A stretch of DNA of 64,000 nucleotides from Rhabdothermincola salaria (GTDB taxonomy: Bacteria; Actinomycetota; Acidimicrobiia; Acidimicrobiales; Acidimicrobilacustridaceae), in NCBI RefSeq assembly GCF_021246445.1, contig NZ_JAJQXW010000002.1, forward strand, positions 558,001 through 622,000, in the 5' to 3' direction. The notes under the pieces were generated by a model. The model saw only the letters and a program-made list of their open reading frames with translations. It did no database searches and was not told where the DNA came from. This document shows positions 6,928-62,812 of this stretch, piece by piece. How positions within the stretch are numbered: position 1 is the first letter of the stretch; every line of letters begins with the position of its first letter. Made by a program: the position numbers and the translations under genes.

Positions 6928-7001
6928 TGGAGCGGGTGACGGGAATCGAACCCGCGTTCTCAGCTTGGGAAGCTGATGTTCTGCCTCTGAACTACACCCG
7001 C
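6928..7001 (-). tRNA. tRNA-Gly (CCC)
   Basis: Reverse complement GCGGGTGTAGTTCAGAGGCAGAACATCAGCTTCCCAAGCTGAGAACGCGGGTTCGATTCCCGTCACCCGCTCCA: cloverleaf, anticodon CCC, encoded CCA. Confidence 0.97.
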
Positions 7002-54860: not shown

Positions 54861-54864
54861 CAGG

Positions 54865-54937
54865 TGGTCGGGACCGGCGTCGATCCGGTGACCTATCGCT
54901 TTTCAGGCGATCGCTCTGCCAACTGAGCTACCCGACC
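54865..54937 (-). tRNA. tRNA-Phe (GAA)
   Basis: GGTCGGGTAGCTCAGTTGGCAGAGCGATCGCCTGAAAAGCGATAGGTCACCGGATCGACGCCGGTCCCGACCA; CCA not encoded; T-loop reads ATCGACG. Confidence 0.93.
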
Positions 54938-54973
54938 CGGTGTCGCCACACGCCTCGTGAGTTGTGTGGCAAC

Positions 54974-55051
54974 TGGCGGTCCCGACGGGATTTGAACCCG
55001 CGACCTCCGGCTTGACAGGCCGGCGTGCACTCCAAACTGCACCACGGGACC
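54974..55051 (-). tRNA. tRNA-Asp (GTC)
   Basis: GGTCCCGTGGTGCAGTTTGGAGTGCACGCCGGCCTGTCAAGCCGGAGGTCGCGGGTTCAAATCCCGTCGGGACCGCCA. Confidence 0.96.
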
Positions 55052-55086
55052 ACTGTTGCAACCCGACCTCGCGGCCGGGGACTGCG

Positions 55087-55159
55087 TACCCCCAACGGGA
55101 TTCGAACCCGTGTTACCGCCTTGAAAGGGCGGCGTCCTAGGCCACTGGACGATGGGGGC
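55087..55159 (-). tRNA. tRNA-Glu (TTC)
   Basis: GCCCCCATCGTCCAGTGGCCTAGGACGCCGCCCTTTCAAGGCGGTAACACGGGTTCGAATCCCGTTGGGGGTA. Confidence 0.96.
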
Positions 55160-56833: not shown

Positions 56834-57313
56834 TCAGAGGGTCTCGCCGAGGGCCTCTACGATGTCCTGCAGCAGGGCGCCGAGGAAGTGGTACACGATC
56901 AGCGCCGGGGTCTCGGGGTCTTCGGGGTCGAGGGCGTCCGGCTCCTCCTCCCCGACGTCGAGGGTGGTGCCGAACACCAGGCGCACGGCGTTGATGGCCG
57001 TCATCCACTGCTCGAGCGCCTCGCGGTCGAGCTGGGTGGCCTGGGCCCCGTCGATCAAGGTGGTGAGGTCGGCGAGGCGCTTGGTGCGCAGGTCGTCGTG
57101 CACCATCTCCTGGTACTGCGCCTCCTGCTCGGCGTCGGAGGCATGGGCCATGGGGAACAGCCGGCGCAGGGCGGGGGTGGCGTCGTCGTGCTCGATCGCC
57201 ACCCGGAGCTGCTCGCACACGTCGGACAGCACGGCCCGTTCGGTGTCGTCGAGACGGATGGTGAAGGTGTCAGAGTCGACGGCACGCACCCGCCGTCGGG
57301 AGAACAGGCCCAC
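56834..57313 (-). CDS. DUF2017-like protein (clpS partner gene)
   Basis: PALRRLFP...WMTAINAVRLVFGTTLDV; directly downstream of clpS, as is typical in actinobacteria. Confidence 0.82.
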   Translation of the reverse strand: MGLFSRRRVRAVDSDTFTIRLDDTERAVLSDVCEQLRVAIEHDDATPALRRLFPMAHASDAEQEAQYQEMVHDDLRTKRLADLTTLIDGAQATQLDREALEQWMTAINAVRLVFGTTLDVGEEEPDALDPEDPETPALIVYHFLGALLQDIVEALGETL

Positions 57314-57687: not shown

Positions 57688-58635
57688 TCACCCGGTGGGA
57701 GCGACAAGGCTGTCGGTCGGGGGAGTGACGGTGGTGGGGCGGTGGCCCTCGGGCGGCTCGAGCGGGTGGGCGGTGAGCCCCAGGTGGAAGCGCAGCACGG
57801 CCACCCACACCACGATGCTGCCCACGATGTGCAGGGCCACGACGAGCGGCGGGACGCCCCCGAAGTACTGCACGTAGCCGATCGCCCCCTGCACCACGAT
57901 GGCGCCGACCAGCACCTTGGCCCGACGGTCGACCCCGAGCGGCGCGCCGCTGCGGTGCAGCTCCCACAAGGTCCACAGCGCGAGAGCCAGGAACGCCCAC
58001 ACCAGCAGCGAGTGGATGCGGGCCACCTCCATGAGGTCGAAGGGCAGGCGCTCGACGGTCTCGTCGCCGCCGTGGGGACCGGTGCCGGTGACGATGGTGC
58101 CCGACACCAGCACCACGGCGGCAGCCGCCACCAGCGTCCGCCCGAGCATGCGGACGCGCCGCGGGACGAGCGGGAGGCCCTTGGAACCGTCGTGGCCGGC
58201 CCGCTCGTGCAGCACCACCGCGTTCCACATGAGCACCATCGACAGCAGGAAGTGGCCGATGACGAACGGCGGCGAGAGGTGGAACAGCACCGTGAGGCCA
58301 CCGAGCACGATCTGGGCGAGCACCCCGGCCACCAGGCCCAGCGACCACCAGGTCAGGTCCCGGCGGCGCGGGGTGCGCAGCAGCGAGCCGAGCACGGCGA
58401 GGGCCACCGCCGCCGACACCAGGCCGGTGATGAGCCTGTTCACGAACTCCACGAGGGCGTGGTACTCGAGCGGGGCGACGAACTGCGTCTCCTCGCACTT
58501 GGGCCACGTGGAGCAGCCGAGGCCCGAGCCCGTCAGGCGCACACCCGCGCCGGTGACGATGATGAAGGCCAGAGCCAGCGCCGCCAGCAGGGTGATGCGC
58601 TGGTAGGCCCGGGGGGAGAGACGCGGCAGGCGCAC
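57688..58635 (-). CDS. ctaA: Heme A synthase (COX15/CtaA)
   Basis: [27 protein letters not shown], and conserved His residues in TM helices. Confidence 0.92.
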
Positions 58636-58746
58636 GCCCGAGATGGTACGGGAGGGCCCCTGGGGCTCCCCAATCAGGCCGGGCTCACCTCGCCGCGCCG
58701 CCGCGATTGTCGGCCCGAGAGGGGGGCGACCTACCATCGGTGTGCG

Positions 58747-59643
58747 ATGAAGACTGCGGCGCGAGCCTCATTCCGTACGCGTCTGCAGGGCTATGTGGCG
58801 CTCACCAAGCCCCGCATCATCGAACTGCTCCTCATCACCACCGTCCCCACCATGATCGTGGCCGAGGAGGGGCTCCCGTCGGTGTGGCTGATGGCGGCCA
58901 CCGTCATCGGCGGCACCTTCTCCGCCGGCGGGGCCAACGCCATCAACATGTACGTCGACCGCGACATCGACGCGTTGATGAAGCGCACCGCGAAGCGCCC
59001 CCTCGTCACCGGGGTGCTCACCCCCCGGGCCGCCCTCACCTTCGCCGTCGGGCTCGAGGTGGTCGCCTTCGCCTGGCTCTGGCTGTTCGTGAACCTGCTG
59101 AGCGCGGTGCTGGCCGTGGCCGCCTGCCTGTTCTACGTGTTCGTCTACACGCTCTGGCTCAAGCGCCGCTCGACCAGCAACATCGTCATCGGCGGCGCCG
59201 CCGGCGCGGCACCGGTGCTCATCGGGTGGTCCGCCGTCACCGACTCGCTGGCGTGGCCCCCCGTGGTGCTGTTCGCCATCATCTTCTTCTGGACCCCGCC
59301 GCACTTCTGGGCCCTCGCCATCCGCTACAAGGACGACTACTCCGCCGCGGACGTGCCCATGCTGCCGTCGGTCGCCACCTTCCGGGACACCTCGATCCAG
59401 ATCCTGGCCTACACGGTGCTCGTCTGGGCCCTGACGCTCGTCTTCGCGCCCGTCGCCGGCGTGGGGTGGATCTACGTCGTGTCCGCCGTCGTGCTCGGTG
59501 CGGTGTTCACCGCCCTCGCCGTGCAGCTGCTGCGCACCGGCTCGAGCGCGGTCGCCATGCGCCTGTTCACCTTCTCCATCACCTACGTGACCTTGCTGTT
59601 CGGGGCCATGGCCCTCGACGTGCTGGTTCGCAACGGCCTGTGA
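58747..59643 (+). CDS. ctaB: Protoheme IX farnesyltransferase (heme O synthase)
   Basis: LTKPRII, DRDIDALMKRTAKRP, NIVIGGAAG, WTPPHFWAL. Confidence 0.96.
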   Translation: MKTAARASFRTRLQGYVALTKPRIIELLLITTVPTMIVAEEGLPSVWLMAATVIGGTFSAGGANAINMYVDRDIDALMKRTAKRPLVTGVLTPRAALTFAVGLEVVAFAWLWLFVNLLSAVLAVAACLFYVFVYTLWLKRRSTSNIVIGGAAGAAPVLIGWSAVTDSLAWPPVVLFAIIFFWTPPHFWALAIRYKDDYSAADVPMLPSVATFRDTSIQILAYTVLVWALTLVFAPVAGVGWIYVVSAVVLGAVFTALAVQLLRTGSSAVAMRLFTFSITYVTLLFGAMALDVLVRNGL

Positions 59644-59791: not shown

Positions 59792-61351
59792 ATGGCCATA
59801 ACCGACACGAGACCCGAGGTCGCACCCGAGGCGGAAGCGTCGGCGATCACGACATCGCCGAACACGGTGTTCGGCACCGGCGACCACACGACCCTCGGGC
59901 GCATGTGGATCGGTGCCGCCCTCCTGCTCGGCATCGCCGGCTGGGTCCTCACCGCCCTCGTCGGCGTCCACGAGATCGGCGACGCCGACGTGTTCAGCGC
60001 GGATGCCGCCTTCACCATGTTCACCCTCGGCCGCGTCGGCCTGGTGCTGCTGGTCGTCGTGCCCCTCCTGCTCGGCATCGCCACCCTGGTGGTCCCGCTG
60101 CAGGTCGGCGCCAACACCCTCGCCTTCCCCCGAGCCGCAGCCATGGCCTTCTGGACCTGGCTGATCTCGGCCGGCGTCCTCGTCGTGGCCAACACCATCG
60201 ACGGCGGCTTCGGCGGGGGGCGCATCGAAGCCAACGACATGATGCTCGCCTCGCTGCTGGGCCTCGTCTTCGCCTTGATGGTCGCCACCATCTGCCTGCT
60301 CACCACCGCCATCACGCTGCGCACCCCCGGCATGAGCCTCGACCGGGTCCCCGCCACCACCTGGGCCACCCTCGTCGGTGGATCGCTCTGGCTGCTCACC
60401 CTCCCGGTGCTGGCCGCCAACGTGCTGCTCATCTACATCGACCACCGCTACGGCGGGCCCAGCGAGTTCGGCCTCGCCGACAACCAGTGGGCCCAGGTCT
60501 CCTGGCTCGTCGGCCAGCCCCAGATCTACGCCTTCGTCATCCCCGTGCTCGGCATGACCACCGACGTGTTCACCACGCTCGGCGGCGTCCGCCAGGCCAA
60601 CCGGGGCTTCGTGCTCTTCGGCATCGGTGCCTTCGGGGCGCTCAGCTTCGGCGCCTACGCCCAGCCGTTCTTCTACCCGGACGTCGCCGACCAGGCCCTC
60701 TGGGCCGGCATGTCGCTGCTGATCGTGCTGCCCACCCTGTTGCTGGTGGGTGGCTGGGCCGCCACCCTCAAGGGCGCCCGTCCCCCCGCCAAGGCCGCGG
60801 TGGGCGCCGCCGGCGTGGCCGTGCTGTTGCTCCTCCTCGCCGTGGTGGCCGGGGCCCTCTACGTCATCACCCCGCTCGAGCTGCGCCAGTCCGGCGCCTT
60901 CTCCGCCGGCCACTTCGCCCTCGTCGTGGCGGCCGGCCTGGCCGGCGGCATGGCCGGCATCTACTACTGGTCGCCCAAGCTCCGCGGGCGCTTCGCCAAC
61001 GAGGCGCTGGCCAAGCTGTCGGTCCTCGCCGTGCTCGGCGGCGGCGCCCTCGCCGGCCTGCCCTTGCTGGTACTCGGCTTCGCCAACCGCTTCGACGGCC
61101 TGGCCGACGCCTCCGACGCCCTCAACGGCATCGCCGTTGCCGGCGCCGCCCTCATGGCCCTGGCCCTGCTCGCCACCATCGGCGCCCTGCTCACCGCATC
61201 CGGCGACACCCCCGCCGACGATGCCTGGGGCACCGGCCAGACCCTCGAGTGGGCCACCGCCTCACCCCCCGTGCCCGGCAACTTCGGTGAGCTGGCCGTC
61301 GTCCGATCCTCCGAGCCGCTGCTCGACGCGCCCGAGACCCAGGAGGCCTGA
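59792..61351 (+). CDS. Cytochrome c oxidase subunit I-like protein lacking most metal ligands (pseudo-enzyme)
   Basis: COX1 scaffold motifs present (DHTTLG, VPLQVGA..LAFPR, LRTPGM, YYWSPK, WG.GQTLEWATASPP..NF). Ligand sites altered: GHPEVY to GQPQIY, WAHH to YAQP, HFH to HFA, and the helix II His is absent. Confidence 0.85.
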   Translation: MAITDTRPEVAPEAEASAITTSPNTVFGTGDHTTLGRMWIGAALLLGIAGWVLTALVGVHEIGDADVFSADAAFTMFTLGRVGLVLLVVVPLLLGIATLVVPLQVGANTLAFPRAAAMAFWTWLISAGVLVVANTIDGGFGGGRIEANDMMLASLLGLVFALMVATICLLTTAITLRTPGMSLDRVPATTWATLVGGSLWLLTLPVLAANVLLIYIDHRYGGPSEFGLADNQWAQVSWLVGQPQIYAFVIPVLGMTTDVFTTLGGVRQANRGFVLFGIGAFGALSFGAYAQPFFYPDVADQALWAGMSLLIVLPTLLLVGGWAATLKGARPPAKAAVGAAGVAVLLLLLAVVAGALYVITPLELRQSGAFSAGHFALVVAAGLAGGMAGIYYWSPKLRGRFANEALAKLSVLAVLGGGALAGLPLLVLGFANRFDGLADASDALNGIAVAGAALMALALLATIGALLTASGDTPADDAWGTGQTLEWATASPPVPGNFGELAVVRSSEPLLDAPETQEA

Positions 61352-61353
61352 GC

Positions 61354-61950
61354 ATGGAAGCCGCCACCCACGCCCTTCCCCCGGCCCCGCCCCTGCAGCG
61401 GCCCCGGGTGCTGATGGTGGGCACCGCCTTCGCCTCGGCCGCCGCCATCATGGTGCTGCTGGGGATGCTCGGCGTCTACCTCACCCAGCGCGGCGCCGTG
61501 CTGGCCGCCGGCGACACCTGGCTCCCCGACGGCGTCACCATCCCGCTGAGCCAGCCCAACATCATGCTGTCCACCCTGCTCATGGGGTCGGTGGCGGTGC
61601 AGTGGGCGGTCTACGCCATCGCCCGCGACGACCGGATCAACGCCTACATGGCGCTCGGCCTCACCATGCTCTTCGGGTTCATGGTCATCGTGATGACCAC
61701 CTACCTCTACAGCATCATGGAGCTCGAGATCGCCGCCAGCCCCCAGGGCGTGCTGCTCTACGCCATCACCGGCGGCCACCTGGCGTTCCTCATCGGCACC
61801 ATGGTCTTCCTGGCGCTGATGTCCTTCCGGGCCCTGGCCGGCCAGTACACCAGCCGCCAGCACGACGGCGTGTCCGCCGCCGCCCTGGCCTGGCACGCAC
61901 AGGTCGCCATCTTCTTCGTCATCTGGCTCGCCATCTACATCACCAAGTAG
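61354..61950 (+). CDS. Divergent cytochrome c oxidase subunit III-like protein
   Basis: Five-TM CtaE-size protein; YAITGGH and AWH echo TGFHGLH and YWHFVD but are degenerate. Confidence 0.78.
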   Translation: MEAATHALPPAPPLQRPRVLMVGTAFASAAAIMVLLGMLGVYLTQRGAVLAAGDTWLPDGVTIPLSQPNIMLSTLLMGSVAVQWAVYAIARDDRINAYMALGLTMLFGFMVIVMTTYLYSIMELEIAASPQGVLLYAITGGHLAFLIGTMVFLALMSFRALAGQYTSRQHDGVSAAALAWHAQVAIFFVIWLAIYITK

Positions 61951-61957
61951 GCCACTG

Positions 61958-62812
61958 ATGCTCCGATCCCGCGCCTTCACCCCTGCCTTCCGGTTCTTCG
62001 CCGGCCTGGCGGTCTTCTCGCTGGTCGCCGCCTTCGTGGTCGGCTTCTCCAGCGAGGCCCAAGCCCCCATCGACCGGGTGCTCGGCCCGCTCACCATGGG
62101 CTGGAAGGGCGGCGTCGGCAACCACGTCGCCTACACCCTCTTCGTCGGCCTGTTCGGGGTCTCCGCCGGGCTCGCCGGCATCCTCGTGGCCTTCCGCGAC
62201 GCCGACCCCGAGGCCGACGCCGAAGTCTTGAGGGCCGAGAGCGTGCCCCTCACCCGGGCTCCGGCCGGCATGAACTACCTCCCGGCCATCGCCGCGGTCG
62301 CCGTCGTCGTGGCGCTCATCGGCACCAGCACGGCCAACACCGGCCTGGCCCTGGCCGCCGTCGCCACCCTCGTGGCCGTCGGCCTCACCTGGATGCTGCG
62401 GGCCTGGGCCGAGCGGGCCACCGGCGACGACACCACCAACGCCGAGCTCTACCACCGCTTCATCGACCCGCTGCGCCTCCCGATCGTGTCCGTCGTCGCC
62501 ATCGCCATCGTCGTGCTCGGCGTCTCCCGGGTGCTGCTGGCGGTCTCCAAGACCGGCTCGGTGATCGTGTTCTCGGTCATCGCCACCGTGATCTTCGGCA
62601 TCACCATCCTGCTCGCTCTCGTGCCGAAGTCGGGCCGCTACGTGGTCACCGGCCTCGTGGTTGCCGGAGCGCTGCTGGTCATCGCCGGGGGTGTCATCGG
62701 AGCCGTCGCCGGAGAGCGCGACTTCGAGCACCACGGCGGCGAGCACGGCGCCGAGGAGACCGGCGGCGCCACCGAATCCGGCTTGGCTCCGCTGGTGGTC
62801 GGCCCCTCATGA
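61958..62812 (+). CDS. Membrane protein; N-terminal half resembles actinobacterial oxidase subunit IV (CtaF), with extra TM helices and a His-rich tail
   Basis: TM pair, then RDADPEADAEV...NYLP, then a TM pair, echoing CtaF PEDxxDAEI...SWWP (by eye); ends ERDFEHHGGEH. Confidence 0.6.
   Translation: MLRSRAFTPAFRFFAGLAVFSLVAAFVVGFSSEAQAPIDRVLGPLTMGWKGGVGNHVAYTLFVGLFGVSAGLAGILVAFRDADPEADAEVLRAESVPLTRAPAGMNYLPAIAAVAVVVALIGTSTANTGLALAAVATLVAVGLTWMLRAWAERATGDDTTNAELYHRFIDPLRLPIVSVVAIAIVVLGVSRVLLAVSKTGSVIVFSVIATVIFGITILLALVPKSGRYVVTGLVVAGALLVIAGGVIGAVAGERDFEHHGGEHGAEETGGATESGLAPLVVGPS

Follow-up and report, generated by a model that had tools for sequence, protein, structure and literature searches.

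What becomes of a cytochrome oxidase subunit I when nearly all the residues that hold its cofactors are gone, and why would a cell keep it? The question is raised by a stretch of 64,000 nucleotides from Rhabdothermincola salaria (contig NZ_JAJQXW010000002.1, positions 558001-622000; hereafter the window), whose genome has about 70% G+C. Close to the right end of the window, between the haem O synthase gene ctaB and the subunit II gene ctaC of a caa3 oxidase operon, lie three further genes whose products are referred to here as sCOX1, sCOX3 and X. Together they form a pseudo-enzyme module derived from a heme-copper oxidase, and this module may serve as a non-catalytic structural partner of the caa3 oxidase encoded beside it. 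An initial annotation of the window had described sCOX1 as a 'shadow' subunit I that lacks five of its six ligand histidines; the term shadow is kept below for sCOX1 and its relatives.

Ligand loss in sCOX1

The homology of sCOX1 to subunit I is clear from sequence and fold alike. The protein matches the Pfam family PF00115 with 136.9 bits (cut-off 34.8, E=1.1e-39), and phmmer aligned its residues 28-512 to CtaD of Mycobacterium smegmatis (6hwh_V) with E=1.7e-41. The AlphaFold2 (AF2) model contains 12 long helices, with a predicted local distance difference test score (pLDDT) of 83.9 and a predicted template modelling score (pTM) of 0.87. Foldseek superposed this model on A-family subunit I chains with template modelling (TM) scores of 0.75-0.81, the value for CtaD of Corynebacterium glutamicum (7qhm_D) being 0.80. 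The scores on the NCBIfam equivalog models are far under their cut-offs (TIGR02891, 179.9 versus 670.75; NF050116, 171.2 versus 880). The codon usage of the gene is normal, since its G+C content at third codon positions (GC3) of 0.956 resembles that of ctaB (0.982) and ctaC (0.955), within a range of 0.95-0.985 across the genes of the region.

The ligand positions were called from alignments to 6hwh_V and to the genome's own CtaD. The helix-II histidine is replaced by glycine (FTLGR, 60020-60034), the GHPEVY motif reads GQPQIY (60512-60529), with the pump glutamate changed to glutamine, and the histidine pair of the CuB site reads QP (60662-60667). In helix X the HFH motif has become HFA, so that His374 (60911-60913, within GHFA) is the sole retained ligand histidine, one of six. 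The D-channel aspartate is replaced by threonine and the K-channel lysine by leucine. Tyr246 is present, and the family has Tyr or Phe at this position. In total, sCOX1 contains 4 histidines in 519 residues. The initial annotation had located each of these motifs correctly, and its account of an intact reading frame with ordinary codon usage, five lost histidines, a lost pump glutamate and a kept tyrosine was borne out; it had left open an alignment in which the ligands were merely shifted, and against the 6hwh_V structure the ligand columns themselves are substituted.

With these substitutions, sCOX1 cannot hold CuB or a low-spin haem in the known way and has no proton channels. The complex cannot reduce O2 or pump protons. 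The positions that bind the haems and FeB in nitric oxide reductases (NORs) fall in the same columns and are likewise lost in sCOX1; in one account of these enzymes, NOR families differ from O2 reductases at the active-site tyrosine and, in gNOR, at one metal ligand, Asp replacing His (PMC11214002). Homology to the assembly proteins SURF1 and Caa3_CtaG was looked for as well, and Pfam and NCBIfam scans gave no such match for sCOX1, sCOX3 or X. The genome contains only two PF00115 matches, sCOX1 and a canonical ctaD. The initial annotation had suggested looking for the latter beyond the right edge of the window, and a fully liganded ctaD-ctaE-ctaF set is indeed found there.

Conservation and inheritance of the module

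The order sCOX1-sCOX3-X-ctaC-ctaD-ctaE-ctaF was found in 16/16 loci fetched from other genomes of the same order, Acidimicrobiales, and in 4/4 further complete loci, that is in 20/20; a fifth further locus is truncated by a contig end. With this truncated locus included, the open reading frames (ORFs) are intact in all 21 loci examined. The gene ctaB lies directly upstream of sCOX1 in 15 of the 16 same-order loci, and a divergent ctaA is present in 9 of them. In the window the module genes are closely packed, with 2 nt between sCOX1 and sCOX3 and 7 nt between sCOX3 and X.

Relatives of sCOX1 are numerous: of 8000 scored candidates, 658 proteins reached E<=1e-10. Its 120 best homologues share 47-95% identity with it and are nearly all of similar length; Acidimicrobiales and Rhabdothermincola are among their sources. 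When species-representative genomes were scanned by pattern, 243 proved to encode an sCOX1 relative, among them Iamiaceae, Microthrixaceae, Rhabdothermincola and metagenome-assembled genomes of Acidimicrobiales. A class-wide tally with a hidden Markov model (190/201 genomes) was set aside, because that search fails to separate shadows from canonical CtaD, the genome's own ctaD reaching 226 bits.

All three genes are under purifying selection. Ratios of non-synonymous to synonymous substitution (dN/dS, Nei-Gojobori method, NG86) in the closest pair of loci, L017 and L018 (dS ~0.2-0.35), are 0.089 for sCOX1, 0.011 for sCOX3 and 0.097 for X, next to 0.050 for ctaD and 0.057 for ctaC. In the pair L019 and L020 they are 0.194, 0.073 and 0.170 for the module genes and 0.065 for ctaD. 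The ratios refer to these two closest pairs, the dS of distant pairs being compressed in GC-rich genomes. The order-wide synteny, the purifying selection and the presence of a canonical oxidase next door uphold the view of the initial annotation that the module is maintained and is neither decaying nor a sequencing error.

The distribution of the module was followed through X. Of 49 genomes sampled from the same order, 42 gave a full-length match to the X profile; the other orders of the class gave partial C-terminal matches only, in 22 genomes, which brings the overall count to 64/201. In a broader sample of 401 genomes from the order, X was recovered in 228 by a query with one protein, and three genomes flagged unpublished are part of that tally. 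Of the seven same-order genomes without X, five were tested, and in these the best CtaD is 45-47% identical to the caa3-type CtaD and is thus of the aa3 type. One such module-less locus (L044, 1955-5123) carries, beside ctaB, an aa3-type ctaC-ctaD pair with all ligands present, followed by a 130-aa CtaF-like ORF. The module travels with the caa3 operon in the sampled genomes, as the tested genomes without it hold only aa3-type CtaD.

What the shadow family conserves

Among the 120 close homologues, no ligand column is conserved as histidine, and the column of the haem a3 ligand, in which His374 stands, contains Gln in 69, Leu in 15, His in 14, Val in 11 and other residues in the remainder. A broader set of 102 shadow sequences was assembled from the fetched loci (22) and from the pattern scan of species genomes (80). 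In this set the three CuB columns contain histidine in 0, 1 and 0 sequences, the single histidine belonging to one member, and the haem columns in 11 (helix II), 12 (high-spin, a3) and 6 (helix X). Canonical CtaD keeps all ten tested functional residues in 22/22 sequences. Since the a3 column is histidine in only 12/102, His374 is incidental to sCOX1, and it is the loss of CuB that defines the family. The proposal of the initial annotation that the protein acts as a haem A chaperone through its one histidine finds no support here, the column being histidine in 14/120 close homologues and 12/102 family members and the genome having its own SURF1 and Caa3_CtaG genes elsewhere.

In the closer clade, three glutamines occupy the former CuB1, pump-glutamate and CuB2 positions in 104, 119 and 118 of the 120 homologues; the same glutamines vary in divergent members, being found in 11-14 of 17. 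Comparison of 16 divergent shadows gave 36 invariant or nearly invariant positions, of which 30 are identical in canonical CtaD: glycines, prolines, tryptophans, a DH pair, the PLQ.G and FPR motifs and LEW. The six that are specific to shadows are Gly, Val, Ala, Leu, Leu and Pro, and there is no sign of a newly evolved polar site among the 36. On this evidence, the conserved part of the shadow family is its scaffold.

The partner proteins and their predicted complex

sCOX3 is readily recognized as a relative of subunit III, as the initial annotation had it: it matches PF00510 with 54.2 bits (cut-off 23.8), and hhalign relates it to the genome's own CtaE family with 99.6% probability. Its top equivalog is the actinobacterial model NF050119 (aa3_CtaE_Actin), with 55.7 bits, under the cut-off of 190.

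X required a family-level analysis. The X of the window has no Pfam or NCBIfam match, PF12270 included, a Pfam scan of a 23-member X alignment gave nothing relevant, and hhalign found it unrelated to the operon's own subunit IV of the COX4_pro type (PF03626; probability 0.4%). Of the scored candidates, 443 proteins matched X at E<=0.001, and no Pfam domain is precomputed for any of them; the family profile retrieved 339 clusters (represented at 50% identity) at E<=1e-30, and 1504 when the threshold was relaxed to E<=0.001. Orthologues of 340-420 aa are found in many other families of the order. Of 76 long representatives, 40 were scanned: PF12270 was matched over residues ~5-125 at E<=0.01 in 20 of them (3 above the cut-off) and Cupredoxin_1 at the C-terminus in 15 (6 above the cut-off). 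The type-1 copper motif (Cys-His-Met) is kept in 8 of the 76, and the cupredoxin domain is absent from the X of the window and from its whole family group. Against solved mycobacterial CtaF chains, the family profile aligned over ~110 positions to three PDB sequences (E 0.016-0.037). X may hence be read as a four-helix, subunit IV-like (PF12270) domain joined to a three-helix anchor and, in many lineages, to a cupredoxin, the likeness to subunit IV being one of the family as a whole. The label 'CtaF-like' given to this gene in the initial annotation stands for the four N-terminal helices of the family; to the window's own X, which matches no model and is unrelated to the subunit IV of its operon, it applies only through that family.

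The anchor (helices 5-7) has weak homologues in other orders, which are the anchors of plastocyanin-like proteins. In those orders (L038 6001-7687, also L039-L042) ctaCDEF is followed by Caa3_CtaG and then by the three-helix, plastocyanin-like protein (PF00127), its ligands intact. Cupredoxin- or plastocyanin-family domains also occur elsewhere in the R. salaria genome, at C2:529646-529903 (~28 kb left of the window) and C4:180797-181081, and a blue-copper carrier separate from X may thus still be present. The AF2 model of X, built from 23 close sequences, was too poor for a fold search (pLDDT 58.7). The Protein Atlas names for X ('Cytochrome c oxidase polypeptide IV') are automatic, with TM <=0.64, and were taken as a lead only.

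When X(1-255) was modelled together with sCOX1 and sCOX3, the interface score ipSAE was 0.68 (0.69, 0.62 and 0.68 in the separate runs), the best of three controls giving 0.00. In calibration, the mark applied to this score was reached by 116/157 solved complexes and 2/215 mismatched pairs. Contact agreement between runs was at least 56% and partner pLDDT at least 58. In the model, helices 1-4 of X contact residues 114-307 of sCOX1 and residues 18-47 of sCOX3; the three proteins are thus predicted to bind one another as a complex resembling subunits I, III and IV.

Origin and stepwise loss of cofactors

In a tree of 65 rows, from which 6 near-duplicate rows and 3 loci of unpublished genomes were omitted, the shadows form one clade (support of 100 in the Shimodaira-Hasegawa-like approximate likelihood ratio test, SH-aLRT) on a stem of ~1.5 changes per site. 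Within this clade the main family groupings branch as they do in the linked ctaD. Constrained trees were compared by the approximately unbiased (AU) test. Grouping the shadows with the caa3 CtaD of the same order was 51.3 log-likelihood units worse than the free tree (p-AU 0.045), a marginal rejection of a group that was named after the tree had been inspected. Grouping them with all caa3-like CtaD was 10.2 units worse (p-AU 0.36), and with aa3-type CtaD 0.99 units better (p-AU 0.52). The module does not appear to be a recent tandem copy of the neighbouring ctaD. An aa3-type ancestry is slightly favoured by three observations: the best score of sCOX3 is the one on aa3_CtaE_Actin, X resembles CtaF, and the top matches in the PDB come from actinobacteria. 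In a tree that includes the basal members, the attachment point of the shadows falls outside all 16 canonical rows, at an open fork.

These basal members, in the loci L171, L172 and L173 (genomes G490, G338 and G403), retain more of the enzyme. Their sCOX1 has all three haem histidines, in helix II and as H-x-H in helix X, and neither CuB histidines nor channel residues. In all three, the C-terminus of X is a cupredoxin whose type-1 copper motif is intact (CDVHPDQM, CDFHPSM, CDFHANM). The three haem histidines and a type-1 copper X occur together in 3/3 of these loci, versus a copper motif in 0/19 of the others in which both genes were read. Two more shadows, in L024 and L105, keep the low-spin histidine pair only. 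A tree of 63 rows (28 of the 80 pattern-scan rows kept, 3 near-duplicates dropped, 16 canonical rows) places L172 and L173 between the canonical clade and all other shadows and L171 and L024 at the base of the main shadow clade; the remainder consists of 42 rows that lack sets of haem ligands, with L105 among them. This placement is to be taken with caution, given the midpoint rooting and the lower divergence of the basal rows. The simplest reading of the series is an initial loss of CuB, followed later by the joint loss of the haems and of the copper in the partner. The basal forms, with three haem histidines, no CuB and a type-1 copper partner, may themselves be an undescribed redox enzyme.

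Interpretation and alternatives

These results are best explained by the following sequence of events. sCOX1, sCOX3 and X would be the products of an old, separate heme-copper oxidase lineage in which the CuB site disappeared first. In most Acidimicrobiales, R. salaria included, the haem ligands and the blue-copper domain of the partner would have been lost next. The three proteins would now make up a complex without metals that has the shape of subunits I, III and IV, and their genes would be co-transcribed with those of haem O synthase and of the real caa3 oxidase (ctaCDEF). Because selection outlasted the loss of every cofactor and no new polar site arose, the retained function would be structural. 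That the module is a non-catalytic structural partner of the caa3 oxidase or of its supercomplex is given a probability of roughly 50%; among the ideas of the initial annotation, those of a scaffold or spacer seem the best that remain. A fuller version is put forward tentatively, in which living lineages represent every stage of cofactor loss, from a CuB-less two-haem protein with a blue-copper subunit IV through forms with low-spin ligands only to a metal-free one that the caa3 oxidase or supercomplex of Acidimicrobiales now requires as a structural subunit.

Several points weigh against a structural role. The module is known here from its genes: the role and the association with the caa3 oxidase are deduced from them, and mutual binding of the three proteins from structure prediction, in which the passing score may reflect likeness to, or memory of, the solved CtaD-CtaE-CtaF rather than binding. 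The same caa3 operon is used in other orders of the class that have no such module, so the module is not generally required for caa3 function. At the protein level the module evolves 2-3 times faster than ctaD (55-61% versus 83% identity between this genome and family members), a rate that fits an accessory factor as well as a stoichiometric subunit. The linkage with ctaB fits an assembly role equally well, and the three conserved glutamines of the closer clade could be a residual polar site with a function that cannot be named.

The alternative that survives best is an assembly factor, a transient template or chaperone that would hold CtaC, CtaE or haem A during oxidase biogenesis and stay outside the mature enzyme. 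Such a role agrees with the position of the module between ctaB and ctaC in 15 of the 16 loci, with its faster evolution than the catalytic subunits and with a review of assembly factors in which the mode of haem A insertion in bacteria is described as unsettled (PMC9145763). Nevertheless, no candidate haem ligand is conserved, not even in the a3 column, SURF1 and Caa3_CtaG are encoded in the genome, and three co-evolving subunits with a cupredoxin in many lineages would be elaborate for a chaperone. Sister orders moreover assemble the same caa3 operon without it. An assembly factor is considered rather unlikely.

The module could also have acquired a new, non-redox function as a 12-helix membrane protein, for instance as a leak or channel for protons or ions, as a transporter or as a regulator of the oxidase that is insensitive to O2 and NO. 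Strong purifying selection is compatible with this, and the glutamines of the closer clade line the former binuclear centre. However, divergent members differ at these glutamines, the family as a whole has no invariant polar or charged residue that is specific to shadows, and the D- and K-channel residues are gone, which makes neofunctionalization unlikely. Still less probable is a protein that remains redox-active, binding haem or metal through non-histidine ligands or through His374 alone and exchanging electrons with CtaC. The basal relatives, with their three haem histidines and type-1 copper partner, and the presence of His374 and Tyr246 in sCOX1 are what could be said for it. In sCOX1 itself only 4 histidines are left, His374 is not conserved even in close relatives (14/120), the X of the window has no cupredoxin domain, and the one COX2 gene of the genome belongs to the canonical set; a redox role is judged very improbable. 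Finally, a gene copy in recent decay, or an error of assembly or sequencing, for which nothing speaks beyond the missing ligands themselves, is refuted by intact ORFs at all 21 loci, by sCOX1 relatives in 243 species genomes, by dN/dS of 0.01-0.19 in the two closest pairs and by the agreement, in the main family groupings, between the branching of the shadows and that of the linked ctaD.

Gene layout and other features of the region

The coordinates of the module, of the surrounding oxidase genes and of the basal modules are collected in Table 1. The location stated in the initial annotation, between ctaA/ctaB and a normal ctaC with CuA and cytochrome c domains, is correct. In ctaC, the motifs CTEFCGLSHANM and CAACH are present, so that both CuA and CxxCH are intact. 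The start of ctaB at the ATG at 58747 was inferred, the profile matches spanning 58816-59640. A promoter and terminator scan gave 2 terminator-like sites versus 0.9 expected, both within coding sequence, and hence no evidence either way on transcription.

Table 1. Positions of the oxidase genes, of the module and of its basal relatives (window coordinates unless a locus is named)
Feature	Position	Strand	Evidence and remarks
ctaA-like haem A synthase	57688..58737	-	PF02628 COX15-CtaA, 73.2 bits; start uncertain; divergent from the operon
ctaB, haem O synthase	58747..59643	+	NF003349, 375.9 bits; PF01040, 216.7 bits; first gene of the operon
sCOX1, subunit I paralogue, 519 aa	59792..61351	+	PF00115, 136.9 bits
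sCOX3, subunit III paralogue, 198 aa	61354..61950	+	PF00510, 54.2 bits
X, 284 aa, ~7-helix membrane protein	61958..62812	+	Subunit IV-like N-terminus at family level
ctaC, subunit II, CuA and fused cytochrome c domain, 401 aa	62995..64000, runs past window end	+	TIGR02866, 189.6 bits, above cut-off
Canonical ctaD, 679 aa	L003 6271-8310		TIGR02891, 687.2 bits, above cut-off; just right of the window
Canonical ctaE	L003 8303-8935		Right of the window
ctaF, operon's own subunit IV, 126 aa	L003 8946-9326		COX4_pro; right of the window
Basal module	L171 5746-9073
Basal module	L172 5429-8614
Basal module	L173 5202-8523

The canonical CtaD has a C-terminal extension of two extra hydrophobic helices, which opens with an SYWP motif resembling the one in CtaF and X and has an acidic tail at its end. 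A 298-aa ORF after ctaF (L003 9504-10400) was rejected as a gene: it is itself rich in Arg, Ser and Pro, its relatives are interrupted by in-frame TAG and TGA stops at varying places, and what it represents is probably a real gene read in the wrong frame or on the wrong strand. The sole cytochrome b match of the genome lies at the end of contig C2 (C2:866745-867134) and contains one in-frame TGA; no actinobacterial-type QcrC was found above cut-off in the genome. An ORF of ~160 aa with an 'LRRLFP...' motif occurs near the cta genes both in the window (56834-57313, minus strand) and in the module-less genome of the same order mentioned above (L044 7321-7848), a likeness noted by eye. The window further contains a cluster of tRNA-Phe, tRNA-Asp and tRNA-Glu at 54863-55159 (minus strand) and a tRNA-Gly at 6928-7001.

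Significance and relation to known systems

Databases label the module proteins as working cytochrome oxidase subunits. As a result, a non-existent oxidase is counted when the metabolism of Acidimicrobiales, which are abundant in freshwater, soil, the sea and wastewater, is reconstructed. In the full-text literature searched, which did not cover subscription-only papers and supplements, no description of a ligand-less A-family subunit I was found. If the module does belong to the caa3 oxidase as a structural component, it would be the first dead oxidase of the A-family known to act as a subunit, and it would offer a natural series for studying the role of the COX1/COX3 scaffold apart from its chemistry. 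The basal members, with three haem histidines, no CuB and a type-1 copper partner, point to an uncharacterized redox enzyme and possibly to a new enzyme type.

The peptidase-derived core proteins of mitochondrial complex III are dead paralogues kept as structural subunits. The role proposed for the module would be analogous, a catalytic fold kept within a respiratory complex after its catalysis was lost, although here it is read from genes. With the caa3 oxidase CtaCDEF of its own operon, a type solved from Thermus thermophilus (2YEV), the module shares the operon, the co-inheritance and the COX1 and COX3 folds; it appears not to be a recent tandem copy of that enzyme, whose real subunit IV, COX4_pro, is unrelated to X. 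The best matches to sCOX1 in both sequence and fold are found in the actinobacterial aa3 core CtaD-CtaE-CtaF of the bcc-aa3 supercomplex, solved from M. smegmatis (6HWH/6ADQ) and C. glutamicum (7QHM). The module shares with this core the set of subunits I, III and IV, as sCOX3 scores best on aa3_CtaE_Actin and the N-terminus of X aligns to CtaF. Unlike the core, it has no CuB in any member, no haem ligands in most members, no proton channels and no dedicated CuA subunit II, and its subunit IV-like protein X is fused to three more helices and, in many lineages, also to a cupredoxin.

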